DNA of 63,534 nucleotides, counting the filler, from Platydemus manokwari (Eukaryota): the NCBI GenBank assembly GCA_037951405.1. It is 6 parts of 6 records of this genome, joined end to end, with 100 filler letters (N's around TTAATTAATTAA, not from the genome) between each part and the next. Parts side by side here need not be neighbours in the genome. Positions count along the whole stretch, not along the records: positions 1 to 9,424 come from JBBMOY011251096.1; 5 more parts are not named here. One strand, written 5' to 3'. This document shows, piece after piece, positions 1 through 45,072 of this stretch. Numbering within the stretch: the first letter of the stretch is position 1; each line of letters opens with the position of its first letter. The position numbers and the translations under genes were made by a program. The notes beneath the pieces are model-generated. The model made no database searches, was not told the DNA's origin, and saw nothing but the letters and a program-made list of their open reading frames with translations.

Positions 1-55
<55 letters not shown>

Positions 56-77
56 TATTATTATTATTATTATTATT
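1..77. repeat. (TTA)n microsatellite, possibly the 3' end of an LTR
   Basis: Near-perfect TTA run followed by CTCATTACA (78-86), resembling the (TTA)n-TTTAATACA end at ~6760-6784. Confidence 0.95.
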
Positions 78-86
78 CTCATTACA

Positions 87-386
87 GTTCCGAATTACTA
101 TCGCCTCTTTACAATGAATCACTTTAAGAAAACATCAGAAAATGTGGCACGACAGATATGGGGACGATTTGCTGCATTCGGAACTTTCGTTACCGGATGT
201 ACAGACATATACGTTATATTTGTGATAATCAAAACAGTAGTACATCAAATAATGACTACTTATCAGTTGTATGAAGTTTTCGGATGTTCTACAAAACTAC
301 TTTTTGGAATTTGTCCGATGATAGTCAACCAGGTAATGCACAAAAGGCATAGAACCGAGGTCGAAACTGGTAATGCAATTACTTAA
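87..386 (+). pseudogene. env: C-terminal membrane-proximal/TM region of a chuvirus-type class III fusion glycoprotein (env-like)
   Basis: Frame open from 87: VPNYYRLFTMNHFKKTSENVARQIWGRFAAFGTFVTGCTDIYVIFVIIKTVVHQIMTTYQLYEVFGCSTKLLFGICPMIVNQVMHK. It fits the recalled chuvirus G tail pattern W-G-x-F-x-x-FG..G..I..I..IK......Y-x-L-x-x-x-(Y/F)G-x-S-x-x-L. Confidence 0.78.
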
Positions 387-697
387 GGAGAGGCATCAAC
401 CTGACAGACAGCCTTCTTCACAATGGGGAAATGGACTTTATTATAAAACAAGGAGACTGTCAAACTCTCCAAATAATTCAGACAATGAATCAGAATTCAA
501 CTCGGAGATAAAAGTCATGAAGAAACCAATGTAAACCTAATTCAAATATTTAAAGGACCCAACGATTTTATCAAGGAAAAGTGTCTGTACCCACAGATAA
601 GTCTGCATTGCAACAGGATCAATAGGAATACCCATCAAGTACTGATGAGGCCACGTTACATCGACAAAACCTTTTAGGATACACGGAATATCATTAC

Positions 698-1010
698 ATG
701 ATGCGGGATGACCGAAATCCTCATAAATTATTTCCGATGAAACTTAATCGACACACAGTCATGGCATTAATCGAGACCGGAGCTGGCTCAACTAGTATCC
801 ACCCAAGGGTGCTTAATATGAATGAATTACAAGGCATCGAGAAAACGGATATCAATATTACAGGAATCAATGGAAGCACTTTTTATTACTCGGGGCATTA
901 ACGTGCAAGATGAAAATATGTGGTCAAACCCTAACAGCCTCTGACACAGTATCAAACCTCTGTCCATGCCACTGCGTAGTAGGAAAAGATGTCCTCAGAC
1001 AGCTAAAAGG
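698..1010 (+). pseudogene. Retropepsin aspartic protease, degenerate
   Basis: ALIETGAGSTSI (DTGA motif with D>E), flap-like ITGINGS, and CVVGKDVL (I-L-G-x-D motif) in the next ORF. Confidence 0.88.
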
Positions 1011-1082
1011 CATTGTCTATGAGTGCACAACCGGAACCCTGCTCAAACTCACTAAGGACAAACATGAATGTGGGAATCAATT

Positions 1083-1320
1083 CTATATTGAGGAAGAAAT
1101 TTCAATTACATCTCGAACCGAAACCGTCTGTCTTGGTCAAACCAGCCATGCCAACACGAACCCAGCGTTGGTTTCATGGAAAGGGCATCCATGCCAGTCA
1201 GTGCATGTATTGCTAGAGTACAAGAAGGAAAAATTCCCATACAAATAGCAAATACATCATCAGAGCCGATAAAACTGTATCCATACACTAAATTAGGAGC
1301 AGTAACGGAATTCATAATGG
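1083..1320 (+). pseudogene. dUTPase-like linker domain between PR and RT
   Basis: EEEISITSRTETV...VSACIARVQEGKIPIQIANTSSEPIKLYPYTKLG resembles the degenerate dUTPase-like beta domain of many Ty3/gypsy pol proteins. Confidence 0.55.
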
Positions 1321-1429
1321 AATCTCAAGAGAAATTACCCAGAAAATACTACGGACCAATCGAAGTACACAGTTCGGATATCACTTCACAACAATGTACG
1401 CAGCTCACTAAACTTCTCAACTATTATCG

Positions 1430-2320
1430 AGAAGCTTTTGCGAAGCACGAGCATGATCTAGGAAAGTGTAATCTCATCGAATATAGGATTGAATTACTAA
1501 ACCATCCAATTTGCCAACGAGGATACCTCACACCGATTGCTATAGAAGCAGAGGTACAGAAGCAAATTTACGAATTACTCGAGCAAAAACGGATCAGACT
1601 AAGCTACTCTCCCTGGAGATTGCCTATTGTCATGGTGAAGAAAAAGGAGGGAATTATGTGCATGTGCATCAATTGTCGAAAAGTTAATGAACAAACGCGG
1701 AAGGATAATTATCCGTTACAACTAATAGATGAAATGGTCAACCGAGTTCGTGGAGCAAATTTATTCTTTACTCTCGATTTACTGACCGGGTACAACAACA
1801 TTTTGATGCATGAAGTTTTGATATCCATCACGGCCTTTACCGACAGCAAAGGTTTATGTGAATACACAGTCATACCATTTGTACTAACTGGTGCTCCAGC
1901 CACATTTCAAAGGGCCATGAATCTAATGTTAATGGATGTACATCACGCAATGGTATATATATATATATGACATTATCCTCTACTCAAATGGCTACGAGGA
2001 GCACGAACGAAGTATAGAAGAGGTATTGAAAAAAGTAATTGTAAAGCTGAAACTTATCAAGTGCGAATGGTCATGAAAAGAAGTCAAATATTTAGGCCAT
2101 ATCGTGTCTGGACAAGCAAAGAAGCCTGACCGCGCGTAAACAATACCCTCAACTTTGAACAATCAAAAATGTCCAAGAGTTCCTGGGATTAGTGAACTAT
2201 TTTCGAAAATTTATCCGAAATTGTGCTGCATCGCATAGCCACTTATTAAACTATTACAAAAGAATAAATTATTCCAATGGGAGGAAGCACAGGAAAAGGC
2301 TTTCAATTCTCTAAAACAAT
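1430..2320 (+). pseudogene. pol: Ty3/gypsy reverse transcriptase, frameshifted
   Basis: SPWRLPIVMVKKKEG, MCINCRKVN, DNYPLQLID, TLDLLTGY, TAF, PFVLTGAPATFQRAM, a disrupted YIDD near 1953-1971, KYLGHIVS and FLGLVNYFRKFI. Confidence 0.95.
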
Positions 2321-2322
2321 CA

Positions 2323-2730
2323 TTGATCGCCGAACCAATCCTTAGACACCCAGACATGAGCAAACCCTTCATCATTATGACAGATGCAAGGGGTTACATC
2401 ATTGGTGCAGTTCTGGGACAAATAGACAATGAAGGAAATGAATACGCCATCGCGTATGTCAGTCGCAGATTAAAAAGTCACGAACGAAACTATGCAGTCA
2501 TTGAATTAGAGGTATTTTCCACCGTATACGGTGTAGAAAGGTTTCGAATTTTCATTTATGATCCCCAAATATATGTACTCACCGACCATTGACCCTTACA
2601 GTGGTTGCTACAGCATCGAGACACCGCATCTAGACTCATCCGCCTTGCATTCAAACTACAGCAATACAATACTAAGATATGTTACCACAAGGGAAAGCGA
2701 ATGGCAATGCTGATGCTCTCTCACGTGCAG
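2323..2730 (+). pseudogene. pol: Ty3/gypsy RNase H
   Basis: PFIIMTDARGYIIGAVLGQ, IAYVSRRL..HERNY..IELE, LTDH*PL and GKANGNADALSR. Confidence 0.95.
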
Positions 2731-2989
2731 ACCCGAACACATACGAAATAGATACGGAGAACGTTTTCGCAGTGGTACACACACTGACTCAAAATATCGA
2801 AGTGAGCAAATTACAAAAGGATGATGAAGAAATTCAGGGGTTGTTTATTACAACTGGATCACATTCCTCCGGAATGGGAAACTAATAGGATTATTCATTT
2901 GTCCGCAGAGCCATCGTGCACGAAGTTTATGAAAAAGCACCAAGGGGAAATGGTGTTTGATAAAAATCTGTTGAAGATAGAAGATGACG

Positions 2990-4075
2990 ACAAGAAGCTT
3001 ATCATCGTGCCCAAGGCACTCCAAGAAACGCTTATTCTACAATACCCCGATGGAACACTAGGAACAAATCTTGTCCCGCCTTCAACAAAAATATATATTG
3101 AGAAATATGAAGAATAATGTCAGACAATGGTGCGTATCATGCTAGATATGCCAGACCCGCAGGAATACAGGCAACAAATGTCGAGTCCCTTTACGACCTA
3201 TGCAGATTCCTACTGCTTCCATGGGGATTGTCGTAATGGATCTCGATGGTTTTTTACCACTCAGTAAACTGGGCAATCGCTACATATTAGTTTTTGGCGA
3301 ATATATGACCCGGTGGCCAGAGGCTTATGCAATTCCGGACAAGCAAGCAAACATGGTTGCCAAAATCTTTGTGAAAGAAATTGTCTACCAATACAGGGTA
3401 CCGAAAAAGTTATTAACATATCGCGGGACGGAATTCCTCAACAATACCCTGGATTGTATCAACAAGATGTTTAAAATAACTAAGCTTAACACTACGCCCT
3501 ACCACCCACAAACCGATGGGCTGGTTGAGAAGTTCAATGGAACACTAACAAACATGCTGGCATCCTACACAAGCACCGCTCAGACCGACTGGGATGTCCA
3601 TATAGCTTCCTGTTTATTTGCGTACCGAAATGCTGCTCAAGCCAGCACAGGATACACACATTTCTATTCGATGTATCTGAGACATAGCCATATGCCAATA
3701 GACCTGGAAATAGAACCCAAGCTCTTGCAATATATGGAGAGAGAAGACAACGTGACCGTTATGAAAGAACGGCTCACTGAGGCATGGCAACGAATACGAC
3801 TCTCACTAAAACATCAACAGGAACAAATGAAGGATAAATACGATAAAAATAAGCAGGCTCACACTCAACAGGTTGTATACAAGATTATGTTGGAGACTAA
3901 GGCCTGCAAGAAGGGTATATCACTCAAATTAAGTCGACCTTATAATGGTCCTTACATTATAGAGAAAGCAACCGAGACAAATTTTATAATACGTCCAATA
4001 GAAAAGAGTGATGCCGAACCTATATGGATACATGATAAGACGTCGTTCACACTGAAGCAAAAACAACTCAACTAA
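2990..4075 (+). pseudogene. pol: Retroviral-type DDE integrase with zinc-binding remnant and GPY motif
   Basis: IIVPKALQETLILQY, WCVSC*IC, MDLDG, LLTYRGTEF (second D>Y), TTPYHPQTDGLVEKFNGTL and YNGPYII. Confidence 0.96.
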
Positions 4076-4119
4076 CGAAAAAACCCCACGAACCGGATAA
4101 AGAGAAAGGAACAACTATA

Positions 4120-5287
4120 ATGACAAGTCTGATCACAAAGCAGGGGCACAGATATCCCCTGCTATCAAAACAAATGCCACTACTGATGTTCATGAGCATC
4201 ATTGCATGTTGCCCAGCACACGTGGAGAAATACCCACCGGTAATAGGACCAGTATGGACGTGTAATTGGAAAGCATACTGGCTAACTATCAATGCTCACC
4301 AAGAGCCAAGATATTACTATAGTGCCACATTAATTCGGCGGAACCAGACTGATAAAAAGGTAGAGTTTACCCACCAACAATTGTACGAAAATTTAATCCA
4401 AATGAGACTGTTTTAAACATCATCAGTACTTCTGTTCCTGAGTATTGCTATAACGTAACTGATGAATTTATCAATAGATATCTCTCCTTTACTCGGCAAG
4501 CACACGAGAAGGACGAATTGAGAAAGAGGACACTATTTATAGCCACCAGAACGATGGGTACAGCAAGAAATCTAACCGGTAGCGTGGTTACGCCAGCTAT
4601 CGCTGTCCTCACCATTCTCGATTATCAAGGGAAAGTGATTATAAATTTCCGAGTATCACCTCGCCACTATGTAAAACATTTCAGAAACGACTATATTGAC
4701 AAAGTAAATGAAGCTGATATACTCAATCAATGGGACGAGATATCCTGTATCAAGCAAGTAAACAGGATCGTGGATCAACATATCCTTGTAGGATACAAAG
4801 TAGCAGACATTTTTGAAGTGCTACAAATACCGCCTGATCGCCTTCTAGACATAAGAGACCTAGCAAGAGCGAAATGTATGGCGGTACATGAGCTTGTCAG
4901 TCTCAATCAATGAAGATGTACAAAATCTTGAAAAAGATTGTACCAGAATACGAAATGACAAAGCGTCATGAACTAAGGACCACTAATGCTACGGAAAAAA
5001 TCCGACAAACATATCTCAAACTAGAAGAAAAATCGGAAGATAAATTTACCCCAACAAAAGTGGCACCAACCATACATAAAGAAACAATGATAGATGTACC
5101 CCAGTGCGACATAGATGAAGAAGCCGCGGCGATAGCACTGGATCAACTTATGAATAGCGAGGACATTACTGATGTAACAGATATCAAGATAGAAGATATC
5201 TCCATCGAAGAGGCAGAAGCTAACCTCGGAGAAAATGAGATAAATGCGAATGAGAAATCCTTCCTTCCCAAGCAAATCCACAAATAG
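4120..5287 (+). pseudogene. Post-integrase accessory region: hydrophobic segment, ISG20/REXO4-like DEDDh exonuclease fold lacking catalytic acids (~4518-5045), acidic tail
   Basis: LFIATRTMG, AIAVLTILDYQGKVIINFRVSPRHYVKHFR, KQVNRIVDQHILVGYKVADIFEVL, IRDLA and HELRTTNATEKIRQTY parallel the REX4-family blocks ALDCEMVG, LARVSIVNYxGxVVxDxYVxPxxxVxDYR, VxxxLxGxILVGHAxxNDLxxL, IRDT and HSSVEDARATMxLY in order and spacing. Confidence 0.72.
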
Positions 5288-5642
5288 ATAGTTTTCGAAA
5301 AGAAACGCTGGCATATCACAGCCTTTTAATATACATGTGAAGATACGGAAGAGGAGATGAATCTCGACTTTAGAAACAAAGCCCTGAAAGAACATCAGTA
5401 AAAGAAAGCCATCCGATAGAAGACTCGGATAACAATTATCCTAAACGAGGAGTCGGCAGAACAATGCAGTTCAGTTCAAGGAAAACATTAATCATTGATT
5501 TCGTTTTAGACATTGATATTATTCCTAACTTGATATTATTGTGATCACCTTGAACACTTTCCTTTAATTGCTATATATTCTCTCATGTTTGCTTATGTAT
5601 GATTTATTTTTTATGTATGGATTTTTCGTGACGAAAAAACTT

Positions 5643-5656
5643 AAAAGAGGAGGAGA
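5643..5656 (+). promoter_or_regulatory. Polypurine tract (plus-strand primer)
   Basis: AAAAGAGGAGGAGA immediately followed by TGTTGTGGGG. Confidence 0.88.
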
Positions 5657-6784
5657 TGTTGTGGGGAACTAATCAGGCCATTTTGACCCAACCAAATTAA
5701 CTAAAAAATAAAAATAAATTGATATAAATTTTATTTTCAAATTAAGCTTCAAATTAAGAAAATAATAATGCCAGAAATTACAAAATATTAATAAAATTTT
5801 TAAATTTGTTTTATTGCATTAAAACTAATTGACATTAAGGTCATTAGGAAAATCCGCATCGAAATCTAAAAATAGAACCTCCGATGAACTGAAAACATAA
5901 GTAACAACACTAGTTGCTATAAATAGACAAGGACTAAAAATAGTAATCTATGCTGTACATATGCTAAAATTAGCAACATATGCTACAAAGCATAGAATGT
6001 TACCAAAATAGCAACAAGATGCATGACTCACAATGACAGAATAGCATAAATACTGGCAGAAAACCATAGCACTTCGCATTTCGACTACCTACAGTTATAA
6101 AATTTTCGCCATCTCAATTCCGTAGCTATTTATTTTTCAATTGTATGCAAATTTGAATTATCAAACTACAAAGAAGTCAACTTTGATTGTATGCTCATAT
6201 GGATCAGCAGATTTTAAAGAAGCTTGTTTTTTATTATATGCCCATTTGGTTCATCAATTTTCGAAGAATTTCATCATGAGTAATTTTATTATTTGTGTAA
6301 CAAATTTCCGACCCACGGCTAATTTTAGTCTTGTGGTCTATTAAAATCTCATAAGCACTTCTGACCGTTCCCCACCTTCACTTTTGTCAAGAGAGGCTTA
6401 TCCGAGAACCTAAGCGGGACGCCCTTTACTGTTTACTTGACTGCACAACTCTTTCCTCCTACAATAGAGTACAATGTCTTGAATATTTTAAACTATTGTT
6501 ATCAGATTTTCGATTGTTACTTAATATATTTTATTTTGTCTTATTTTGTTTTATTCATTATATTTTATTATCATTTATATTTTAAATATTATTTTTACTA
6601 CACCTCCCGAGAGATAAAGCAACAACAACCTCTTATCTGTTTGGAGTCCAGATAAGTTGAAGATCTAAGGCAAGTATTATTTACTCTATTTAAATCCTTC
6701 TGATAAAGTTTCGAGTATTATCTATATCTTTTTTCAAATTGCGCATTTGAAATTTGAACTTATTATTATTATTATTTTAATACA
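5657..6784 (+). repeat. 3' LTR, ~1.13 kb; right end inferred
   Basis: Starts TGT right after the PPT. AT-rich non-coding sequence ends ...TTTAATACA where composition switches to the inverted coding fragment. There is no second LTR copy in the window to confirm the end. Confidence 0.7.
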
Positions 6785-7273
6785 GCCCGACAATCTTTAC
6801 ACTTTGACTCTTCCAACACACGTGCCATCAGGTTCGATTCGTCCATCGCGAGTTTTTGTTTTTGCCAGTCGTTTTACCACTTCTGCCATAAGAGTGACTT
6901 CGCTATCTAGCCTAAGTTTTCCTTGTACGAAGGCATCGTCACAGGCTTCGGGAGATATTTTCACATTTCGTGGTGTGAGTTTGGCATCGTGTACAGATGT
7001 GTGGATGAATTCTATGCAATACTACTCGAATGTCGCTTTAGTGACCCTGCATTGCCTTACTCTGGTCAGGTGAAATTCAATTTCTTGGTAGATATAATAT
7101 TGTTCCGGTTTTTCCTTGTACACCTTGTGAAGTTGTAAGGCCAGACATTCCAAGAGGTCGACCAATGAATAGATCTTGGACAGTTTCGGTTTTTCGCTGT
7201 CATAGGCCGTTAGAATATGTGTTTTTCCCACGAGATTCCAAATCAGTAGAATTTTGACGAGAGTGTTGAAGAA
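6785..7273 (-). pseudogene. env: Signal-peptide-like segment plus N-terminal ~140 aa of a chuvirus-type class III fusion glycoprotein, truncated at the LTR end
   Basis: FFNTLVKILLIWNLVGKTHILT-AYDS..YSLVDLLEC..YYIYQ..VRQCRV..*YCIEFIHTSVHD..ISPEACDDAFVQGKL..DGRIEPDGTCVG, reading through one stop at 7022-7024. It matches the recalled chuvirus G pattern AYDC..SLLDVGEC..QLLQ..QCKI..YCGMHSH..ISREAC...G...GxxxxDGxCxG. Confidence 0.82.
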
Positions 7274-8630
7274 TCCACTGTTTAAACCTCCTAGTCCCTC
7301 GGTAATTGTGGACTGATTTGATCCGAATTGATCCCATTCTCCATAGGTTTTAATCCATGGTCTCAATACATTATTTTCTAACTGTATCATATGATTGGCG
7401 ACTTATTTATACTGAGTTTCTTTGCTTCTGGATGTTGTCAGTATTCGATTGGTCAGGTATGTTAATGTCAATTTGACCCATGCGTTAGTTAGTCCGTCCT
7501 TTGTGAGCTCTCCTAACACTGATTCTGGTTCGGAGCTAGCATAATCTCTAATAGCATGCCGGAGTCAAGGGATAAGCTCCTCGTACCCCTCGGTATTGAT
7601 AGCAGAGAGTTCGCTGTTATAGATTGTCAATGCTCTTTTTTATGCGTTGCAAGCAGGTTTTTACATCCTTGTTGGCTCGTTTGTTTCATCCGCAATGTTC
7701 CTCAAGATTCTCCTTGGATTTGGCTGCTTGTATGTGTTTGTATAGTTGGCGGCAGTTCCTTTTTCTTTTTCTTCTTAGTGCTAGCCGGCAGTTCGTCGAT
7801 TCAGAGCTTGTTATGTGTAATTTTTTCGATAATGACTGAGGGTACATCAGGTTAGGGAATTTCCTCGATATGCATGGGCAATGCTTCCATTTGATTGTTA
7901 TGTTTCCGTATTTAGTGATTGGCGTCTCTATCAACAGTATATAGTGGTGGAATTTCTTCTTACAGTGGCTGAATTTCCGTTTGCAGATGTTCCTCAAGGT
8001 TCTCTTCTGCTTGTGGTTCCCTTATAACCGCGATTCTCCTGCATTGGTTGGAGTGGATAGGTACTTGTAAGACCTTGAATGTCATTTTATGTCCAGATAG
8101 ACATCCCACGTCCACTAGGTATTCGTCATCATCGACGGGGTTTTCCCAAATTTTGATGGCGAACGGTTTCTCTATAGATTTGTCGCGTTTGATATCTTGT
8201 CTTACTCGCCTTACCTGGGTAAAGCAGGGATCCTGTTTAAGCCAGTACCCATGTTCTGAGGTGCGAATACATAAATTGACGGGGTCTTGTCCCAAAGAGT
8301 TATTGCGTACAGCTAGCCCATATCTCTGTAGAAATAATTGAGCCTCACTTCATTATGTAGTCATGCGTTCCAATAGCCTCGCTAATATCGGGGCGATCTG
8401 TGTCAATACCTCGGTGGGTACAGGACATAAATGTGTTTGTAAATAAATGTTTTATTTTTTCATTCTCTATTTCCGGCTTTTGTACCTCGGCCAACAATCT
8501 GTTAGGAATTGCGACATTTGTTTGCTTTCCGCTTTCGTTAACTCGATTGTGGCTAACGCGTTTTCCGTCGTGAGGACTGTGGTTAACCGAAGAGCAGTGT
8601 TGTCTTTTGCTGCATCCCCTAAAGCAGCAA
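7274..8630 (-). pseudogene. Degenerate ~450-codon reading frame of unknown family leading into the glycoprotein
   Basis: ORFs 8467-8682 and 7960-8295 share one frame broken only by point stops, continuing to ~7740. After about two frameshifts the frame YNSELSAINTEGYEELIP*LRHAIRDYASSEPESVLGELTKDGLTNAWVKL runs into MIQLENN. GC content is clearly above the host background. Confidence 0.65.
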
Positions 8631-9424
8631 AATATATTAAAATATTTATTAAAATATATATTAAAATATTTTGATTATCCAAAAATAGTCAAATAATTGA
8701 ATGTCAAAATTCATTAATCTAATATCTAATAGCTTTTCATGAAATTGTTGTTATTATTATCAATGGTGTTGTTATTATCAGTTTATTTCAGAAAGTCGGG
8801 TTCACGTACTCATTCGTACTTAATGTAAATGTACTTGCGATTAAATAAAAATAAACATTAGCCTTAATAATAATATGCTTTGAATAAAAAACAATTAAAA
8901 AATTATTTAAAAATATACCTTGAACTAGTGAACAAGAACTTGTTTCATTATTTTTTAAGTTAAAAATTGTCATTGAAAAAAATGTATTTTCTAACTAATT
9001 GTACCGATACTTTGGATTTGAATAGCAGAATGGGTAACTGCAATTTTAAAATTTTTCGTAATTAAATCAATTATAATTTACCACATTGTTGGAATAATTA
9101 TCAAGAAATATTTAATTATGAATTAAATGAATGATGAACTGTAATCTTAAACCGATTCACTAAAATAAATAGATACATTTATAATTCGAATAATTTTTAC
9201 GAACATATATTATCTAAATAAACAGATTAAGATTGAATAATTACTAATATCTAATTTATTTATGAATTCTATTTGATGTTATATAAGAATTTATGATATA
9301 TTTATATTGGATTAAATTTTAAAAGCTGTATAAGGATACAAAATTTTCATATTACATAAAACAAGTTTTGAAAACACTTTGTTTAAATTCCTAAACAAGG
9401 TTTTGTTTGTGATTCATTCAAATT

Positions 9425-9524
9425 NNNNNNNNNNNNNNNNNNNNNNNNNNNNNNNNNNNNNNNNNNNNTTAATTAATTAANNNNNNNNNNNNNNNNNNNN
9501 NNNNNNNNNNNNNNNNNNNNNNNN
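9425..9524. other. Assembly gap with artificial TTAATTAATTAA linker
   Basis: 44 N + 12 nt + 44 N; identical structure occurs five times. Confidence 0.98.
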
Positions 9525-9595
9525 TTGTTATTATTATTATTACCATTATTATTATTACTATTATTATTATTGTTGTTATTATTATTATTATTATA
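9525..9595. repeat. Imperfect (TTA)n microsatellite at a contig end
   Basis: Seen directly. Confidence 0.9.
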
Positions 9596-12500
9596 ACTAA
9601 TAATAGTATTATTAATTATGTTTATCGCAATCTTATTAAATTTATTTATCTTATTAATAATAATATTTTCAATTTATAAATACATAAATAAACATCATGC
9701 AATTCATTCTATTATTAAAGTACTGAAACTGCAAGAAAACTCTCTCCATATATATTGTGGACAAACTTTCTACTTTTACTATGTCGGTAGATATTTCTAA
9801 ACTTTGCAGAACATTATTCAAAATAAATATCCAAGAAATCACTGCCTTGGGATAAAAATTGATGAAGAAACCAATTAATTAAATTCTGCTCTTTTTTTGT
9901 CTGCTGCATATTTTTTGGCAGAAAATTTCAAGTTTCAGTGTCACAACAAAATCGATCGACACTGATAAAGAGCTCATTTTTTCAAAATAATGAAAGATCC
10001 ACCGTTCAAAGTTATTAAAACGTATCGCAGATTGTGGAGAGATTCTTTGTTGTTATAAAGATATGCAAAAATAAAACAAAATTCTGTTTTTCGTAGTAGG
10101 ACGATAAACGATTGGAATCAATGCTTATAGAATTATAAATAAGTGTTGTCACGATTGACAATAGGAAACAAAAAATACAATAAAAACCGACTCATATGGC
10201 CAAGCAATAACTGTTAAGTGGGGGCCCATGTGAATAAAATGTTCATGACCTCGAATTCACCAATGAATGAATTATTAAATGGTTGATTCTCTATTCAACA
10301 CTATACTAATAATGAGAATAACCGATCGAAATTTGTCTATATTTTGACTACCTGCTTGGAGTGCCTATGGTGCAATCAGCAAATTCATTATAAAACACAA
10401 TTAACTGCTAAAACGTTATAAAACAGACATTGATTTTTAACAAGTCAGCACCAACACTGTATTTAACCACTGTATTTAAACAAATTACCGCTTTTGTTAT
10501 AAAATTTTATATTTTATTTGAGTTGATTATTTAAAAAAATTGAACGGCAAAACTTTATAATCTTCACACTTACTCTACTACTTACAAATAATAAGCAAAT
10601 ATTATTATCATTGTTAATAACTCAAATTATATTATATTTATAAATAAATTATATTGAAAATAAATGAGATTATTTGCTTTATCACGTGTTTCAAATGAAC
10701 AAAAAATCGCGACGTCTCACACCTATGCTTTATTCACAATATATGTCATTCAAAAAACAAATTCACCAACACACCTCATGAACACCAATTCATTCAAAAG
10801 TCAGTCACATATATCATTTTATTTGTTGAGTGGATATTTTATATTGTATTTGTTGAAGAGTGTTCCGCTTCTCATTACATTGTCATTATCACCACAAGTA
10901 TCTTCCTAGCGTAAAGATTAATGAGTTTTTATTATGTTTTGCACTTCCTATTTTGAATGGTCCGAGCTGTTCTAATGTAGTAATCATAATAAAACAGTTT
11001 TATCAGCGCAATAGCACTACAGGTGGTGCGATGAACCCGTAAACTGTCGCTGCGAAACAAAATTGGTTATAAAATAGAAATTAAAGAATAAATATCTCGT
11101 GAATATCAATCTCGATCATTTTGAAATTTATTAATTTTCTCGGTTTATTTCTTTTTCTCATTTAATCATTATTAAGATCTAACCAGTAATTTAATTAATG
11201 ATTAAGCGTGTAACGACCGAGATAAAATTTATTTCGAATAAATTTCTTTGTTGTTTAAAAACTTCCATCTTTAGTCATTGATTATAATCAATGTTTTCCG
11301 TATAGTTTCGATTGAAAATCTTTAATAATATTTTAGAATGATTTCCTATTTTGAGAAGTAAATTAATTACTGGATAATTATCGAGGTTCAAATGTAATAA
11401 CGGATATCATCGAAACTGTAACCTTTTCGTATTTAATCCTTCAAACAAACAACCGTGTTTTGAATTGAAATTTTATCTTTGTCTTTTAATTTAGACAGTG
11501 AAATCTCCAGCGCAAGCTGAGGGCTATATGAGTAAAAAGGGTCATTTTTGAGCTGCAGCTAATGCGATATGTATTTATGTAACTACGACATGTGAGTAAT
11601 GCATATCGAAAATGATGGCACATCTGTATACTGGTTCCATGTATTTCCACACTTGCATACTATCTGCACTCATATATCAAGCGTTTCGTGATTTGATAAT
11701 GTTCTGTATCCTGATAAAAATTATTTATGTGTGTGTATGTGTGTGCGTATTCTAGATGATAGTGCTCGCGTATACCCTTATATAATTTACATGAATGTTG
11801 TGATAAAAGGTAGTTTTGGGGTTGAACTTCTTACGTTTGTTTCAATAATAATTATTATTATCTAAAATAGAAGTTTCAGCCACGAATTTGAAATAAGTTC
11901 TGTCAGAAAAATCAGGCAAGAGTAGAATTTTAACAGGACACCATAGAATTGAATGATGACAAATTTGCACATATCGCTCCTATGTCTAGAGAATGAGTTT
12001 TAACGAGGTGTTGAGTTATTTATAAAAATATCCACAGAACATAATGATAAAAAAACAGAGTATTCGATAAAATATGTATAGAATAAAAAGAAAATGAGGT
12101 ATGAGAGGAAAATTTAAAAATTTGAAAGAAAAGTGGATTTGATGATTTTTACATAAGCGATATAAATAAAAGATTTTCAATGTTAAAAATTCCTTTGATT
12201 TTTGTCTATTTTTTCGGTTGAACTTTTACAATTTGTATTTAATGAAAAAGCAGCAACTGACATATTTTATTTCCTCATTAAAGTTTTTTGGAATTTTTAT
12301 AAATGCATCTTTTTCGAAATTTTGTTTTGTATTCATAATGCAGTCAAAATCTGGACTAACAATGACCTTTATTCGATTGGTTAATGAAATATCCAATGAA
12401 ATACTAAAGTGAATTTAAATCGATAATTAACACAATTTTTTTCATGATGGCTCTTCTGAATAAAATTATCAGCTAAACAGCTAACAATCTGCAACCCAAG

Positions 12501-19027: not shown

Positions 19028-20990
19028 TTATATTACGTTTTCAAAAGGTGTAATATTAATACCATTCCCACAAATAAGTCCCTTTTTGTCAAAATTATGT
19101 AAAGCTAATTTATTTGTTTTTGATGATTGAATATCATGTTTATCAGAATATATTATAATAACATTTTGATAATTATCTTTGTTATTAAATAGGCAATCTT
19201 TAAATAAGTCCATATTCATATTTTTATTAATTACGGCTTTTTTAATTACCTTATCCTTTATTTTTGGTTTAATCATAACATCTAATTGCTATCCATTCTG
19301 TTAAAATCTTTCCATTTAATTCATCTTTAAATTTCCCCGGTACTTTTTTATTTATTGTGTTATATAATGAATTATCTTTATTATAATCTGAGAAATCAAA
19401 TTCAATCATTATTTAAATCTTTATAAATATCCTCTGTTTTAATATTTAATATGTATGAATCTGTATCCATATATAATATTTCAATATTTTTTTATATTTA
19501 GGTTTTAAAATACTATAATAAAATTCATATATTAATAATTTGCTTAATTATAGTATAAAAAATTCTAAATAAATTGTTTTACTTAATTTTACCTGTTACT
19601 TTTGATAATGTGTTGCAAATAAATCATCACTGAATTTTGCGAATCTTTTATAAGTTGGTTTTGTATTATGTTTTCTTGCTTTAAGTGGATCGCTAAATAA
19701 TTTTATATTTTCATGTTTTCTAATATTGTCGATAGTTTCACCAAAAAAGCATTGTTCATTAGTTTCCAGATATCTTTTTCAAAATCACTTGTTCCTCTTG
19801 TTCTCAGATTTGTGTCTGATTGAATGTATTCTTTCAACCATTCTTTTTGAAAACACATTATTATTCGATTTACCCTTTTTAATTTCATTCCTGTTTTTAA
19901 ATAGAATTTTAGATTTCTATAGTGAACAACATAATTAGTTTTATCTATTTAGTCACTAATTAATAATTCAGATAGAGGTATTTTTTCTTTTTTAATTTAT
20001 TCTTTTGGAGTGTTACTAAATATTTCAAAATTTACTTTCTTTTTTGTATATTCAAGATCAACTTCTAACACCATTGCCTATTTTGAATTTGGGGGTGTTT
20101 GATTTAATGTTGATGTAAATTCTTCTAAATTATTATTTATTTCAATTGAGTCTTCTTGATGAACCGATTCAAATTTTTCATAGGGTAATGGTTGTCTGAT
20201 AGCCCAACCCTATAAACTATTTGCATCGATACACATTAAGTAATTCTTATCAAATATTTCTGGTGATATTATTTCTTTGTAATTCATAATTTCTAATAAT
20301 TTCTTTGCTTCATATTTATCACTTATTTTATAATTTTCACAATCGGGATTAGTAAATTTACTATTCGCTCTAACATATCTTTTTCCCATTACTGATGATA
20401 ATCCTCCTCTTATTCCTTGTTCGCACATTTCACACATTGTTTGATCTGTAAACAATTCTAAATTTATACTAGTTTCTTTTAATCCTGATTCCCATGTTAA
20501 TGATGGTGATGAAACATAATGAACTGGATCTAAATTTCTTTGGGTCATATTATTAGTTCAAAAAGATTCGATTGAATCAGCTAATATGTCTACATCTTGT
20601 TTTAAATATAGAATTGTATAATCCCATAATGTTCTACATTTGAATATATTCCTCGTTTGTTATCCCACTTAAAATTAATTTAGAATAAAAGCATTCTATT
20701 GGTAGTAAATTTGTTTCAATTATTATTTCTCGATTTCTATTAAATCTGGATCTCTTGAAATTAATTTTAAATAAATACAAGAAGGTATTCGATTAGTTAA
20801 AGCCTTTGTTACTTTACCTTTTGATTTATTGGTTGTCTAATAACACATTCGATATCAGCAACAATTATAAAAGGAACTGGTATTTGATGGTTATAATTAT
20901 TAAAATTTAAGATATTGCTATAGGCAGAACTTCGTTCATTATTATGTTTACTTGGCATAACTACTCTTGAGATTTCCCTTCCATCTTTTC
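19028..20990 (-). pseudogene. polB: Protein-primed family B DNA polymerase (pPolB), fragmented with internal deletions
   Basis: VPFIIVADIEC (~20850-20885), LDPVHYVSSPSLTW, GIRGGLS, IDANSL*GWAIRQPLP, KLMNNAF, ILYMDTDSY (~19455-19480) and VPGKFKDE. Confidence 0.93.
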
Positions 20991-22149: not shown

Positions 22150-22249
22150 NNNNNNNNNNNNNNNNNNNNNNNNNNNNNNNNNNNNNNNNNNNNTTAATTA
22201 ATTAANNNNNNNNNNNNNNNNNNNNNNNNNNNNNNNNNNNNNNNNNNNN
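22150..22249. other. Assembly gap with linker
   Basis: N44-TTAATTAATTAA-N44. Confidence 0.98.
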
Positions 22250-25200: not shown

Positions 25201-28200
25201 GTTTATGTCGCAATATGAGTAATCTCTAACTATGATCGAAGAAGCGTGATTTAACAAGCAATATAATTATACATATACCAATTCAAAATCAACCCTTTAT
25301 TGTATTATGGACATAGCAGCAGTCAAAGCTAGGCGATGAATAAAATTGATTGTTATGATGCAAGCTTGGCAAAATTATACCTTTTTGAAACATTTATCAT
25401 TCGACGTTTGATTTGAAACATTAGTTATAAACATTTTTCTGATGATATAAATTAACATTTTCAGAGTTCCACTTGACAGTGAATTGAAATATTTTTGTGA
25501 CTTGTAGTTTATTTAAATGTTACACAAATTAATGAGAAATTTGGTTATAAATACAATTCTTTAATGTTAAATCATGTAATAATGGACGTAATAATAGTTT
25601 TCAAAGTTGCCGTTCGACAATAACTTGACGAAATATAAAAAATCTCAAAAACTTATTCAATAAACAATCATAAACAATTATCAATCATACTAATAATATC
25701 AATAATACTTATAGGAAATTATTCCCTGTTAAGACGAAAACGACCAAGAGATCCACATGTTGCATCTAGTGGGATCTGGATAGTGTGTAAATAGTTATTA
25801 TTTGTTATCTATAAACAATATAGCTGTTATTTATAAACCATAATAAATATTATCTATAAACAATAATGATTATATATAACTACGATTAAAATAAAATATA
25901 GGATAAGAGAAAACGAAAAACAATAATAACAAATGATAAAAAAGATGGAATATAATAAAAACAATGGCACGGTAGAGATCTCAACATTCAACATTCAATG
26001 GAATCGATCAAAGATATCAAAACCAAACAATTATAAAAGCATCATATCACGAATTCATAATGTCATCAATTATGCAATAAGTCGATATAATCTGGAAATA
26101 TTTTATAATTACAGGTAATGGACATCAAGGAAACACAAAAGCCAACTATTATAAGAGGTTTTACAATGCCCTTCAACAATCCATAGTTAAAGGCACAATC
26201 AACAGAATAAGGATTAAAGAATATCCTAAAGTGGACTATATCTCTAATAAATTAAAAGTCCACACAGAAATTAATCCACAGGTAACCCACGGTATAACAA
26301 AGACAATATTCAGGTTTGATAATGTATGATAACCAACCTTTTAGAAACATACCAAAATTATCAGTGAAAGTTGGAGCCGCGGAGTTCAAAATAAAAGCTC
26401 TGTTCTCATTAAAAATCAAATCAAATCATGAATCGTCCAGGAAATGGAGACTAATATCAGAGAGCTGTTTTAATTCTACCAAAAATCCGTGGGACCTATA
26501 TTATGTATTGTAATTTTTAAATTTTAATTGTTTGTGTTTTTGTTATTGTCAAATAAACTTGTACTTTTTACAGAGTTTAATTTATCGGCTGAAACCCAAC
26601 AAATTAATCTTAATTTTATAATAATAAATTCATCATTTTACAAATAAATGTGAAATAGTATATTATCATAGTATATTCAAAACGATTAGTTTATTTATTC
26701 ACAATTGTCCATTTATTTATTTTATCATCAACAGTTTTTTGTTGAAAATATATATTTATAATTTAATAAAATAATTAATTATTCATTTTTATTAATGGTC
26801 GATCCTTAATCAAACATTTTATTTTTTTATTATATTGCAAAATTAACTGTTGCATGTTTTGAAATTTAAAAAGTTTTATTCAAGAATTTTAAAATCAAAT
26901 TAAAACATTGTTTTAATATCGTATTTCCTAGGTCACGCAAATGAATATTACTTTATTTAATCTTTTGAAAAAATTATTTTTGTTATTATGTACATTTATG
27001 AGAATATAAATTGTGTTGCATTTCCATTGTTGTTTTGAAAATGTTTTAAAATTTTTCTGCAAATTTTTAAGTTGTTTACTGATTACGTTTAATTGTAAGC
27101 AGATTAATTTATACATTTTTAAAGATTATCTCAAACAATGATAGACGATATGATTTTGTATATTCATCCTGTTGAGATGGATATTGATTGATTCTAAGAT
27201 CAGAAGGTAATTAAAAAAATTCCTTCTGATTGCTCTAAATTAATGAAAATAAATATAAATATGATAACCACATTAATAGAACATCTTCAAACATTTTTGC
27301 AACATTTCCTGGATAGAATTATGAAAACTATATAATATGTTGAAATAGAATTAGAATAATTAAATAAATTGTTGGCAAGAATCTCGTAAAGAGAATTACG
27401 TTAACGGAATCAAAATTAAAAATGAAGTGCATTTATAATGCCTGTTAAAATATTTCAGAAATTTTGTCGTTTAATAAACTTAACCTAAACTGATTAAAAA
27501 CACTTGGTTACTTGAATATTAGGCCCAATCACCTTTAATCTTCCAGTGGTACAAGAGGTCTCCTACAGCATAAGAGTCGACCATGAAATCATCCTTACCT
27601 GAATAGAGTCCATCACAGTAAACCTCTCATTAATAATTAGACTAAATTTAATCATACTGTGGTTATGTTTTGTTTTCGTGGTTTTTATTATTTTTCCCAT
27701 AGATTTAATAATCTAAAGTAGCTCTATACTAATTCATGACTTACCACAATTTAGTATTTATTGATGATTATATTTCAATTATAAAATTATAGTTTTTATT
27801 GAAATCCGACTCCAGTACGTGTGGGTTTTTTTAGAGAATTAAAATAAATATCAAATATTACAATAAAATATAATTTTCAAATCAAAATCAAATACAATAT
27901 TGATTAGAGACAATACAATAATTAATAGCAGAAATTATGGCTGATTAATAGCAGCTAATAATCGAGGATTTGATTTAAATAATTAATTTGATTTATTATT
28001 GTGTCAGAGGAATTGTTAAGGATGAAACATAATGTATTGAAAACAATATTTGTTTACAAATTGAATTTTCTTTCGTTAGTCGTTTAACACTTAGATGTGC
28101 TTCTGAATTTTTTTAAGGCGTTCTAAACTGGTTTGATCAGCTATTTATACTGGGTTTGATTTTCCTTGTTTTCATATCTTATTATTATTTTTCTATTTTA

Positions 28201-32718: not shown

Positions 32719-32818
32719 NNNNNNNNNNNNNNNNNNNNNNNNNNNNNNNNNNNNNNNNNNNNTTAATTAATTAANNNNNNNNNNNNNNNNNNNNNNNNNN
32801 NNNNNNNNNNNNNNNNNN
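32719..32818. other. Assembly gap with linker
   Basis: N44-TTAATTAATTAA-N44. Confidence 0.98.
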
Positions 32819-33724: not shown

Positions 33725-36700
33725 CTAGTGGTTCACAGAGTGGCTTGTCTGTTGCCTGGAAAATAGTTGAGGATCGTTACCGCTGACATTTGTAGGCGCG
33801 CACTGTACACTTTGAACTCGCATTGGCATCATATTGAAATTACCTTGGAAATTACCTAGAAAAACATATTTCGATGCTGTTATAATTTTTCATGAAATAG
33901 AAAAAAAATCGATGAAATTTGTAACAATTCAGCTGCAGTGGAACAAGATAACTAATAATAATTTAATATTCAGTTTATATCAATGGAATTTCAATAAAAA
34001 AATAACCACAATTTTACCAAATAATACAATTAAATACGTCAATATTTACAATCACGAATAAATACCATTTCGAAATAATTGTTGAATAATTAAGAAAACG
34101 AAAAAATATTAGAAAATAATGAAAGAAAAATCAAAGCCTACAGAAATCGAAACTGATTGTCAAAACACAATCAATGTGAATTTATCCATATCCTAAGTTG
34201 ATAAAGAAATGAATGCTCTCTTCAAAAATTCAGAGTCTCAATAAAATATGCTATAATTCAATTCCACTTCCAGAAAACAATTATAATTCTAAGAGTGCTT
34301 ATAAATTATTTATAATTATAATTATATACATATATTGGTATGGAGCTATGTAATTTGATATTATATTCTCACATTGGTGAGAAACGATAACATATCTCGC
34401 TTAACATATATTATATTAAATATAAATTAATATATTCGACCAACGGTGAAGACATCGATTTTATACGGTTATATTTCTAATTAATCAAGACAAAAACTGA
34501 GGCTGGAGCAGCTAATATCTGTTTCAAATCTCACACACTCGAATATTAAAAGAGTCATTTATTACTCAGATGTGAATCATTTGGACTGGTATAACTGGAA
34601 AAACCATTCCATTCTGAATTTCTAATTCCTGCTACAAAAGAGAAAATATTTTTCTAAAAATCCTTACGGACGAAATTACCTGAATTCTCGTTCATTGAAT
34701 GAGATCTGTTATAACCAGATGAACGTATACCAGTGTGTGAGATATCAGACGGGCCGTCACAGAATGCAGACTGAGCATTCTTCCAAGAATGTGATCCATG
34801 CAGTGACTGAGAATTTATATCATTGAACATTAAACCACCATTTGAGTAATTGAATTCGTTATGATAATTGCTTCCAGAGGAAATCTTAATTAGAAAAATA
34901 CCATTTTATATTGTTTGGAATGATTTTATTTTAATTTCATATGGTAAAATTCTACTCAAAGATATATATTAAAAATTGAATATAAAAAACCATATGAATT
35001 ATCCGATAATAAACAAATGAAATATTCTAGCTGGTATAGAGGATAATAATCAATAAAAATGAATCTATGGTTGCAAATATTATTATTAAAGCCTCTTGAA
35101 GCGAAAAACTCGCATAAATTATCAAATATTCGTAATTGACAAATTGTCTTGAAGACAAATAATAAACATATTTTTTTCAAAATTGAATAATGTATATGTA
35201 TAATATCAATTAAAATATCATGAAACCATTTGCTTAATTTATATTTAATTGATGCGATTGATTGAAAAAAAGATATTATTTGTCTTCTATTGTTTTATTT
35301 GATAAGATTGATTTATATAAAGTGTGAATAATCAATAATGATAATTTATCAAAAATGGGATATTTTCTATAATATATCCTTCACAATATCATTTCTAATA
35401 ATGGATGAACGTGAGAGAATTGATTTAATACAGAACATATAAAAAGCTTTAAAATTTAAACAAATAATGTTAACATTATAATTCTGGAGAAAATCAAGAC
35501 AAGTTGAATGAATCTAGTTGAATGTTAGATAATTGAACAGATTTTATATCAACAATTAATGATAGCGCGCGCGCACGAGTCAGAATCAATGGAATATTAT
35601 TGATAAAATTGAAAAATATAAATGAAGAACAAAATATTGAATGGATAGATAATAGATTTGTGTCGATTGATTATATAAAATATCAAATATAAGAATAATA
35701 TTAAATATATCCAGATATCAATATTTACAAGCTCATAGAGAGAAATGAATTCAATGATAAGCCTCAATGAAACCATTAATCAATCAAATATTGGATTTGA
35801 TAAGAGATTATATGAGACCAAATCAAGCTTTAGTCAAGCAAATATATTGAAATAATGATTTAACATAAAATTACCTGATTTTGACAGTTATAATTGATAG
35901 GAAACTGATTATTAAATTGATTATGATTGATTCCCATTTGTAGATCTGGGCTTGAATGCTGATTCTGGTACCTGGGATACATATCCACATTAGTTTGATT
36001 TAATAACATAGTCATTATATCATTTGATGATGGGTCACCAATACAATTATTATTGCTAGTGGACTCAAATCCGGGAGGAGGAGATGGAAAACCGGAAGAG
36101 ATTGATTGTACTGCAGTTGAAGTGCTAGGAATAATATTGTTTGAATTTCCCATCAGATTCAAACTGCTCATTTGCTGATTAAGTCTGGTTTCACTCGGTG
36201 ACGGTTTATCATGAATGAATGGTTGTCCCGGCGCACGCGAATTTAAAGTGAAAAAGTCATTATTTGATTGCATCATATACTCGTGAGGATTCTGTCGTAG
36301 CATATTACGTTGTGGAGGTGCATATAAAGAATCGCTGGAGATTAATTTATTTGGCATGTAATTATTAATTCCTGGGGTCATTTTCTGACGGTTTTCTGAT
36401 GCGATGATTTCTGCTAAAGCTTGTCGAGAAACATTGATTGGATCAAAGTCAATATCAGCCGTATCTTTGAATTTTTGTTCATAATTTAAATTGTTTTTGT
36501 CAGATCCAAATATTCTATTGAAATCCATATCTGGTCGGTACTGATATTGATTATAATTTAATACCCCATTGTTATTTGCTTGTTGATTGATATTATGATC
36601 GTATTGCTGATTGATAGGTATATTATTCTGCGAATTCAGTTGATAAAAACTTTCTAACAGAGAATTGGTAGTATCTGGATTCATACAATTTAAGAATGAC

Positions 36701-39700
36701 GATTCTGATACACGACAGAGAGGCGAACTGGAATTTAGTGAACTTGTAAGAATTTCACTGTTGTGTGAAACATTGGATTGAGAATTATCCATTAAATCGT
36801 GGGGGTAATTATCTTTCGAAACGCTTGATAATATTTGATTTGAGTTTGCTTTACTGATTGACGCTTTTGAATTATTGATGTCACCTGAAACCATATATAC
36901 TTTACTAGCGTCATTTGGATCAGTTCCAATAGGAGTCATTTGACCTGCACCAGGCCGCTGAGATTTGGTAGTCGTTGTTAATATGCTGGTAACAGTTGTT
37001 GATGTGCTAGTCAAACTGGGCTTTCTTTGAGTAGGTGTTACGCAATCGGTATTGGTTACAGATGTCGTTGTCGATGTGCCAGTAGTGGTACAAACATTGA
37101 CAATAATAAGTTTTAAAATTTCATGATACTCTTGAATTAACTGATTCTCATATTCAGTATGCTTTCCATTTGCCATATCTTCTTTTGTAAAACTAGCGGC
37201 TTGATCACCCATCTCATGTAAGTACATACAATCTATCTTAGTGCATTTTCGATTGCGCAAGAATTGGCTGCAGTACTTTGTTGTTCCTAATGATAATTTG
37301 ACCGCACGACCATCAATTTCTAATTTTTTCAAGTCCACAAGAGTCTTAAGCGCATCTTCGTTTCGGTGGTATGTAACATAAGCACTTAAACATGATGTTC
37401 CCTAATAAACATAATATTGATATGATATTATGCATCAATTTGACAATATATCTCAATAAATTTATTAATAAAAACAAATATAATAATTATCCAAAAATAT
37501 TCATTATGTAGGAAAGATTGTAAAAATTAAGAAAAAATCCAAACAATATGTCACAAATTTCATTCATATTAATATACTAGAAAACAATCAATGAATGAAA
37601 ATAGAACAAATTCAATATAATTTGCTGAAATGAAATCCATTCTTAATGAGATATGAAACATGATATATATTGTTCAAGAAAATATGTAAACTATTTTCTA
37701 AACACGAACATAATTAATAGTTTGATTGTGAAATTTCAAAAATCCACTCAAGTTATTTTAGGAGAATTTTCATATCCATTCAACCTACTACAATGAAAAC
37801 CCTTTTAGGGTATGGAATTGATGATTTATGGACTAAAAAAATTTAATTTTCAATAGCTTTTGAAATGACATGAAATGGAAATCTACAAATATAATTAATT
37901 ACAAATTTTCATCCTATAGTTGATATGGGAAAAAACGTGTCAAACAAAAATTGTCTCGATAATTCCATTTGATTATTATTAATGATATTATAGTTATCAT
38001 ATTAGCAATCTTGGCTTTTATTCAATTATTAAAATGCCTTCAAAATTAAATGGGATATTCCCAAAAATTGATCATAAATCATAGGGATAACAATCTTTTC
38101 CCATTTGATTTGCTGACGATTTCTTATAAAAAGAAAAATTTATACAAATGAAAGATAATGAGTGATTTTTAATGAAAGCAAATATAAATCTAGAAAATCA
38201 AGCTTTATCGGATAATATTTTTATATATTAATAAATTAACACGAGAAACAATATAAAATTGAAATAATAGATTATTCATTCCGTTATTGTTGTTCCAATA
38301 AAACATTATTATAATGAAACTATAAAATATTATTTATAAAAAATTTATTAATTAAATGAATGATAATACATTTTTGATTATTTATTATCAATTTATATTT
38401 TATTAATTATTAAATAATTTTAAAAATGATAATAAATTTAATAAAATAATATCATAAACAATTTAAAATTAATAAAATCAGACTCATAGAAACAGATTAA
38501 ACATATCTACAATATAAATGGGTAGAGAAACAATGAAATCATTTGTCCTTAACTCACCTGCGGGCCTGGAAAGGTCTGATTTTGATTGATAACGATTTTA
38601 TAAACTTTTCCACATTTCCCGAAATAATCCGATCCCTTCAATAGTTCCACTTCTTCAGCCATACGCATCGGGAGACCAACAACGAATATCAAATTCTTCT
38701 GCAATACCCGATATTCTGATAGATATTCTTTACCTTCTGGTGTGGGTTTACCTTTTTTCGGGCAAACTTTTTTGGAACTTTTTAATTTATTCTTAATTCT
38801 GAAATAAAACCAAATTTAATAGTAAATCCCATCACAGAGCATTGTTGTTTCTGGTCTTTAAAGTTAATTGTTTTGGTGAGAATATCACTCAATAAACCTA
38901 CTATATGCATAATGTTGTTTTTTTGTTTAATATTTCCAAAGAAATGAACACAGAAGACACACATGGATATTAATATATGTATATCCCAACAATAAATTCA
39001 ATAATTTCTACTTCAATACCATTGAAACAATACCGACGTAACAACAAACATTGCATACACTTTGCTCAAGAAATAAACATGTTAGTTATTAAAAATAAAA
39101 AATTTCCCATCAACTTTGTCGGGGACCAAAAAAAACATTTCAATTTTCCATTTCGATGCGAAATTCTCAACAATAAAAACCATTTCAAGACTATGAGAGA
39201 ATTGATAAATGTAAATTAATATTTACTCATTTAATAAACTATTTAGGTGACAAAAGTACAAACAAAGATATACAAAACGTCGGTTAATTATTGTTAATAA
39301 TTAATGTTAAAATACATTTTATGAGTAGTATCGAAATGAATTTCAATTTAATATCAATCGTACATAACATTATTATTAGAAAAATGGATAATAATAATCC
39401 TTAAATAGGTTATTTAAATATAGAAAAATTTTTAAAAAATAAATCCTTACTCTTCTTCTGTACGAGGTTTATATGAAGCCGGATGCTCAGAGTTGTATGG
39501 CTTAAATCATATATTACATATTTTGTTAAATGAGATTTGAAAAACAATACTTTTCGGCAAGCAGGACACAAACCATTTTCTTCATTAATAATTTTATACC
39601 AACAAAATCTACAAATCTGTTTTGGTAGGAAATGAAAAATTTCAAAACTAATATTATTTCCATAAAAATCAACTAACTTGATATCGGCAAGGACATGGAT

Positions 39701-39817
39701 AAAAGTCCACATCATCAAAATCCATGGGCTCCATACATAATGGACACTGAATATCAAGTTAATTAAAAACTAATATTTCACTTAATAATTTTCTACTTCG
39801 ACTGATTCACTGCTCAT
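33725..39817 (-). CDS. CNOT4: CCR4-NOT subunit 4 (RING E3 ligase). Coding exons: 39817-39797, 39746-39678, 39616-39551, 39500-39451, 38798-38558, 37401-35875, 34884-34680, 34631(or 34628)-34566, 33855-33725
   Basis: C4C4 RING CPLCMEPMDFDDVDFYPCPCRYQICRFCW..CPACRKPY; RRM RVLQKNLIFVVGL..YFGKCGKVYKIVIN..SAYVTY; CCCH finger LGTTKYCSQFLRNRKCTKIDCMYLHE. All introns are GT-AG with consistent phases. The first exon and the last three are supported only by splice sites and phase. Confidence 0.95.
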
Positions 39818-44972: not shown

Positions 44973-45072
44973 NNNNNNNNNNNNNNNNNNNNNNNNNNNN
45001 NNNNNNNNNNNNNNNNTTAATTAATTAANNNNNNNNNNNNNNNNNNNNNNNNNNNNNNNNNNNNNNNNNNNN
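44973..45072. other. Assembly gap with linker
   Basis: N44-TTAATTAATTAA-N44. Confidence 0.98.

Follow-up and report, generated by a model that had tools for sequence, protein, structure and literature searches.

A dead envelope fragment in the Platydemus manokwari genome, very probably derived from a Burro-like Ty3/gypsy retrotransposon

The window, by which we mean the whole analysed stretch of 63,534 nucleotides (filler included) from Platydemus manokwari, carries on its minus strand the head of an envelope (env) gene, which is very probably the dead remnant of a gag-env-pol Ty3/gypsy LTR retrotransposon (errantivirus) of the Burro-like kind. What is new here is a single decayed subfamily that differs by about 50% from the closest planarian element in print; the group to which it belongs has already been described. 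The features on which the argument is built are collected in Table 1.

Table 1. Positions of the retroelement features along the window
Feature	Position	Strand	Basis or remark
TAT microsatellite, 75 bases	1-75		Window start; directly before the env tail
env C-terminal part (membrane-proximal and transmembrane)	87-380	+	PF24664 positions 522-609, E 1e-14
Decayed Ty3/gypsy pol (protease, RT, RNase H, integrase)	734-4033	+	Pfam and relatives
Non-coding repeat of 506 bp adjoining the env breakpoint	6296-6801	-	Run-contig depth; LTR-like ends
env head: N-terminal ~160 codons (leader and start of domain I)	6800-7273	-	Pseudogenised, 3′-truncated
In-frame TAG stop within env	7022-7024	-	Translation; also in an exactly matching sequencing-run contig
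Ser of AYDS, conserved cysteine lost	7196-7198	-	Column Cys in 23/24 aligned relatives
Hydrophobic leader, putative internal signal sequence	7229-7273	-	Kyte-Doolittle 15-mer maximum 1.71; no start codon directly before
Bcl-2-like domain, BH1-to-BH2 half, in the env frame	7327-7531	-	Profile of five relatives, window row left out
Candidate ubiquitin/SUMO-like domain (weak)	8097-8340	-	P0008 458-539, E 1.7e-5; spacing to env matches

Results

The env head on the minus strand

Translation of the minus strand gave, after the leader, the motifs AYDS, EC, QC, the in-frame TAG, YC..HTS, ISPEAC, and DGTCVG in this order, with a closing TAA at 6799-6797. The leader and the cysteine motifs split by a stop codon, which had been reported in the initial annotation of this stretch, thus lie on the minus strand where they had been placed. 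With the stop written as X, minus strand 7261-6812 matched positions 5-155 of the 653 of the Pfam family PF24664 (Monjiviricetes_fusion) at E 2e-10, and the profile search that the annotation had suggested gave the read-through 39.7 bits, above the curated cut-off of 27 bits. In an alignment with 28 relatives, five of the six family cysteines were kept in the env head, in columns that are Cys in 25/25, 23/27, 22/23, 17/19, and 17/19 aligned rows. The serine of AYDS sits in a near-invariant cysteine column (Table 1), which bears out the proposed loss of a cysteine by a change from AYDC to AYDS. Together, the Pfam match and the alignment of the five cysteines to family columns support the assignment as the N-terminal ectodomain of a chuvirus-G-type glycoprotein. 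The env head lacks an intact ORF with an ectodomain and a transmembrane anchor, being broken by the internal stop and ending at about profile position 155-178 of approximately 650.

The leader corresponds to helix 42-57 in the predicted model of the fragment, and in the relatives the same hydrophobic segment precedes the first conserved Cys. The only in-frame Met upstream of the leader in this open stretch is found at 7390, within the Bcl-2-like segment described below. The contig bearing the TAG showed zero differences from 6953-7600, the sequencing run being possibly the window's own source and hence not independent. The stop is therefore present in the reads, and an assembly error as its source was rejected with the same reservation about the run. 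The candidate explanation that the env head is the opposite-strand shadow of a real gene, prompted by an overlapping plus-strand ORF (6669-7073), was also rejected, since the profile match and the cysteine conservation are both on the minus strand.

Relatives and fold of the glycoprotein

An exhaustive search of 1.84 billion representatives with a longer read-through (P0002) returned 37 matches at E <= 1e-3, the best at 2e-24, and word-index protein searches with the read-through gave nothing significant among 697 longer and 71 near-length candidates. Ten of the 37 relatives are at least 700 aa long, and all ten were scanned for Pfam domains. Seven of them carry a zinc knuckle, a protease, or an RT/integrase in the same chain as the glycoprotein; an aspartic protease follows env in six of the ten, and RT, RNase H, and integrase follow it in three. 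The other three long relatives (P0014, P0021, and P0027) gave no retroelement Pfam domain, and none of the ten has an informative protein name. P0008 and P0017 have zinc knuckles, and the former also aligns to the region upstream of the env head. When the relatives' polyproteins were mapped to the window, the minus-strand head, the plus-strand tail, and the plus-strand pol were matched in colinear order. Over the fragment, identity was 28%-34% to the env of polyproteins and up to 53% to unnamed fragments, and DNA scans of metagenome and viral sequence yielded no related loci.

Several relatives have features of their own. P0020, P0008, P0018, and P0040 contain at least two aspartic-protease domains after env, with up to seven stretches in P0040, a cluster mate of 4,844 aa that also has ankyrin repeats and C2H2 domains. 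P0033, an env-pol polyprotein of 2,627 aa, entered the databases as a hypothetical protein from a metagenome-assembled Flavobacteriaceae genome and is probably mis-binned animal DNA.

The env-head tree comprised the window and the 24 of 37 relatives that were long enough, with no chuvirus sequence and no viral outgroup; four of its 22 branches were well supported, and the window branch was long. PDB sequence searches with the fragment and with a 29-row profile gave no meaningful match. The model of the fragment (pLDDT 70) found no structural match at E <= 1e-3, the nearest being the G of Wuhan tick virus 2 at E 7e-3 with 22% identity, followed by a gB fragment of a herpesvirus at E 0.09. The model of the full-length relative P0014 (pLDDT 73) matched chu-like and xinmo-like viral glycoproteins with a best E of 3e-38, at structural identities of 17%-22% to viral G in the top eight, and it matched HSV-1 gB at E 2e-12. 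The family therefore belongs to the class III fusogens and is distantly related to chuvirus G. An endogenised chuvirus-related fusogen had been proposed earlier for this locus; the class III family holds, but a chuvirus gene is not supported, as the nearest relatives are the env parts of Ty3/gypsy polyproteins.

Domains upstream of env

The feature had been taken to start at the leader. The env frame, however, carries a Bcl-2-like domain upstream of it, and a candidate ubiquitin-like segment, out of that frame, is found further up (Table 1). The Bcl-2-like profile had a single significant match in the window, at 7531-7327 (E 6.5e-7, versus E 1.7 for the runner-up), which scored 29.8 bits against at most 10.7 in 1000 shuffles. 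Pfam Bcl-2 was matched by the corresponding segments of all five relatives (best 2e-5) and not by the window's own copy alone, and a six-row profile of the five relatives and the window matched Bcl-xL structures at E 1e-4. P0005 aligns in one continuous piece from 7519 through the Bcl-2-like domain and env (E 5e-28). In-frame stops were found inside the domain (7405-7403) and just upstream of it (7567-7565). A Bcl-2-like domain stands directly before env in the window and in six of 39 relatives, five of which are the profile's own rows, while P0030 was found independently. The canonical BH1 motif NWGR is kept in none of the six aligned rows.

The segment at 8340-8097 corresponds to the part of P0008 between the zinc knuckle and env. 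A four-row profile of it drew PDB matches that were all ubiquitin-like (15/15, including ISG15 and ubiquilin), with a best E of only 0.026, and the segment alone gave no Pfam match and no usable ESM Atlas match. In P0017, the order is zinc knuckle, weak ubiquitin, weak Bcl-2, and env. In the window, the ubiquitin-like segment is in a frame other than that of env, so at least one frameshift must lie between them. Since no Pfam family was found at E < 0.05 in three frames of 8650-7401, and GC falls from 42% to approximately 23% beyond 8600, the fragment is cut at its 5′ end too. Pfam scans of the frames revealed no gag or zinc knuckle for the minus-strand piece, and BLAST of 1-9424 against the window revealed no LTR pair.

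The env tail and pol on the plus strand

A second piece of the same glycoprotein family is found near the start of the window. Its PF24664 match falls within plus-strand ORF 75-386, and this tail region of env was matched by 9 of the 10 long relatives. Head and tail had earlier been assigned to one protein family, and the two do match different parts of PF24664 (5-155 and 522-609, respectively). A decayed protease starts within about 350 bases after the tail and is followed by RT, RNase H, and integrase, with Pfam matches to Asp_protease_2 (E 1e-3), RVT_1 (2e-10), RT_RNaseH_2 (1e-31), and rve (7e-5). The whole piece is colinear with the env-pol polyproteins P0020, P0028, P0033, and P0040 at 30%-50% identity, and plus strand 889-1650 aligns to the same interval of P0033. 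The order of env before pol is seen directly in the plus-strand piece and in the relatives; for the truncated head itself we infer it. No BEL/Pao-specific family was found in the pol beside the tail or in the relatives, in which RVT_1, RT_RNaseH, RT_RNaseH_2, Integrase_H2C2, and rve were matched; we take this set to denote a gypsy-type rather than a BEL/Pao pol.

The two pieces lie on opposite strands with the head facing the tail, and each has a retroelement context of its own. Consequently, they are probably two separate truncated insertions and not the halves of one gene.

Directly after the integrase, an open plus-strand frame of 185 codons (4356-4913) resembles DEDD 3′-5′ exonucleases. 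Its best Atlas matches were to RNase_T (score 0.91, with the family on 15%-74% of members), and it gave no Pfam match and no PDB match.

Breakpoint, intervening repeats, and copy family

In tblastn searches, the relatives that reach far enough end at 6794-6824, and a profile of nine long relatives scored 108.8 bits on the env head with a weaker extension to 6739. The 506-bp repeat adjoins this breakpoint, and summed contig depth was 7,000-10,900 in bins 6348-6915 versus 55-874 over 6916-8051. The repeat ends in TGTAA...TTACA and is flanked by CAAAG/CAAAT, a duplication at four of five positions, which arises by chance in about 4% of cases (5000 shuffles). It is possibly the solo LTR of another element. 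Resumption of env beyond the repeat was tested with translated frames and the profile, and env did not resume, which weakens the reading as a clean solo-LTR insertion. Profile positions 179-537 are absent from the window except for one weak match at 27.5 kb. This match, to profile positions 160-235 at 27448-27688 on the minus strand (10 bits, E 0.008; three reversed or shuffled controls at most 2.9 bits), is possibly another very old env remnant. A second non-coding repeat of very high depth, at 5496-6063, also lies between the two retroelement pieces.

At an identity of at least 80%, 1,866 contigs of one sequencing run fell on 100-8600 and covered all 30 bins, a figure that is not a copy count. 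By identity, 209 were at >=99%, 381 at 95%-99%, 606 at 90%-95%, and 670 below 90%, so that 1,276 of the 1,866 were less than 95% alike. Exactly matching contigs had a depth of 12-15, and single contigs on both pieces reached approximately 550-750, depth being no measure of copy number. This pattern points to repeat families. The GC content was 42% and 40% in the two retroelement pieces versus 26% in 9525-63534; planarian genomes are described as more than 70% A/T, and Burro as PIWI-silenced, in the accounts given in PMC11410931 and PMC8532177.

Discussion

Proposed history of the fragment

As the relatives and published elements show, an intact member of the family carries, in one long frame, Gag with zinc knuckles, the accessory ubiquitin-like and Bcl-2-like domains, Env, protease, RT, RNase H, and integrase. 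The leader may serve as an internal signal sequence and direct Env into the ER, and, judging from the fold and from Drosophila errantiviruses, cleavage would release a trimeric fusogen by which virus-like particles could enter other cells. After insertion, the copy in the window would have shed the gag region at its 5′ end together with three quarters of env; a high-copy repeat would have broken it near 6800, and stops and a frameshift would have accumulated. The breaks are observed, and their sequence is our reconstruction. The piece at 87-4033 would be another insertion of this kind, likewise truncated and oriented toward the head. The window copy presumably encodes nothing functional and is inert.

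Alternative explanations

It is highly improbable that the env head is instead a non-retroviral endogenous element, formed when a chuvirus glycoprotein mRNA was reverse-transcribed and integrated near a gypsy element, as has been reported for arthropods. Such an origin might be suggested by the naming of the Pfam family after Monjiviricetes, by Wuhan tick virus 2 G as the top viral fold match of the fragment model (E 7e-3, 22% identity), and by the chuvirus-glycoprotein elements near gypsy fragments that are reported for insects in Dezordi 2023 (PMC10084718). However, upstream the env frame takes in a Bcl-2-like domain that retroelement polyproteins also have, and this largely refutes such an origin; moreover, the nearest sequences are polyprotein env (28%-34%) and unnamed fragments (up to 53%), and no mononegaviral N or L family was detected in the ORFs and frames scanned within 75-8674. 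The chuvirus origin favored in the initial annotation also fits poorly with an identity of about 50%, counted by eye, to a planarian errantivirus env versus at most 22% to viral G in fold searches. Just as little credence can be given to a domesticated or restriction-factor fragment, in which the host would keep the Bcl-2-like domain with the leader or a short secreted piece of env. ORF 7402-7022 (126 codons) is indeed open, with a Met at 7390, but this Met is in the middle of the domain, and stops interrupt both the Bcl-2-like domain and env and also occur next to the former. In addition, a cysteine that is almost invariant has been lost, and many diverged copies make up the family to which the stretch belongs.

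Derivation from a retrotransposon leaves two ways of accounting for the facing pieces, and we consider it unlikely that the head and the tail-plus-pol piece are one insertion that was rearranged by a local inversion or wrongly assembled in a contig rich in repeats. The pieces are non-overlapping and complementary parts of one layout (ubiquitin-like, Bcl-2-like, and env head in one; env tail and pol in the other), both lie in one gap-bounded contig (1-9424), P0005 and P0008 match both, and run contigs of similar depth (~550-750) fall on both, a contig depth not being a copy number. Nevertheless, a single inversion of a colinear element does not yield the facing order, profile positions 179-537 are missing between the pieces, and the DNA between them, at least 1.3 kb, is AT-rich and in part very high in copy number.

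Comparison with known elements

Burro/GYPSM1 elements are giant Ty3/gypsy LTR retrotransposons of planarians (Arkhipova & Yushenova 2019, PMC6431247). As portrayed in the Burro section of that paper, they occur in Dugesiidae planarians, exceed 30 kb, and have a single ORF of ~4,900-5,100 aa, the polyprotein of which carries a Ubi2/SUMO-like motif, BCL2, an in-frame Env, and then the protease, with a dUTPase-like domain between protease and RT as well as MATH/BIR/ankyrin cargo. The same section describes the Env as similar to the glycoproteins of arthropod and fish mononegaviruses, and mentions decaying fragments with stops and frameshifts in one planarian species. The order of the ubiquitin-like, BCL2-like, and Env parts is the same in the window, where the ubiquitin-like part is weak. 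Unlike Burro, the window has only a broken fragment of 1.8 kb, with no MATH, BIR, ankyrin, gag, or LTR seen. The neighboring plus-strand element differs by its DEDD-exonuclease-like ORF after the integrase, which is unlisted in the Burro section of PMC6431247; the paper names DEDD exonucleases as known cargo of rotifer retroelements.

GAG-ENV-POL Ty3/gypsy elements with a gB-type ENV have been described in nematodes, bryozoans, and flatworms by Chary & Hayashi (2026, PMC13524379), whose account includes six such errantiviruses in Schmidtea with 1-215 copies. Like the window family, the Platyhelminthes C1a errantiviruses of that paper are multicopy with a gB-type env before pol; they are intact, whereas the window copy is a dead fragment. 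Bcl-2 is unmentioned in its main text. In gap-free comparisons counted by eye, the env head shared approximately 50 of 99 residues of domain I with the env of Smed_errantivirus_4 and approximately 35 of 96 with Smed_errantivirus_1. These comparisons covered 8 of the 16 host or virus categories of the supplement, with the insect rows outside, which may affect which element is called the closest; the nematode, bryozoan, branchiopod, cnidarian, and viral rows compared showed no likeness comparable to that of the Smed elements. The divergence of about 50% from Smed_errantivirus_4 indicates a separate subfamily.

The G protein of Chuviridae/Jingchuvirales shares its Pfam family, class III fold, and cysteine pattern with the window env, but identity to the window family is only 17%-22% in the top structural alignments. 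A chuvirus encodes G in a gene of its own next to N and L, whereas the window env is a domain within a longer chain and follows a Bcl-2-like module. The BEL/Pao elements of mosquitoes also are LTR retroelements carrying a chuvirus-like glycoprotein of this family (Dezordi 2020, as described in PMC13524379). In contrast to these captured glycoproteins, the window family has a pol that is gypsy-type by its Pfam domains and lies downstream of env.

Possible roles and significance

In intact members, the leader might conceivably, though rather doubtfully, have two uses, as an internal signal sequence for Env and, once cleaved, as the C-terminal membrane anchor of the Bcl-2-like domain. In the window, about 20 residues separate the BH2-type Trp from the leader, a spacing close to that in cellular Bcl-xL. 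The loss of NWGR from all six rows counts against this dual use, which appears neither in the Burro section of PMC6431247 nor in the literature searched. If it were true, one cut would yield a fusogen and a membrane-tethered apoptosis regulator and, with the DEDD-exonuclease-like gene that follows the integrase of the neighboring copy, the element would be a retrotransposon with virus-style counter-defence cargo.

A Pfam match to "Monjiviricetes fusion" in animal DNA calls for a check for a surrounding retroelement polyprotein before it is labelled a chuvirus fossil. The family also bears on whether retroelements gave class III fusogens to RNA viruses or received them from there, and on whether Burro-type Bcl-2-like cargo alters host cell death.

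Other features of the window

The gaps at 9425-9524, 22150-22249, 32719-32818, 44973-45072, and 54448-54547 each consist of N44, a 12-base spacer, and N44. These gaps give rise to long false repeats. The wording of the minus-strand ORF 20210-20557 recalls, presumably, a B-type DNA polymerase of Maverick/Polinton elements. Host genes were recognized at 35860-37401, 39410-39769, 41248-41913, 51691-53232, and 58101-58637, all on the minus strand. The CNOT4 exon among them, with a probable RING exon lying upstream, had 114 matches spread over many animal phyla at only about 65%, none of them to a named flatworm. The others are ORFs encoding a RING finger and a C2H2 zinc finger, and one exon of a ligand-gated ion channel.
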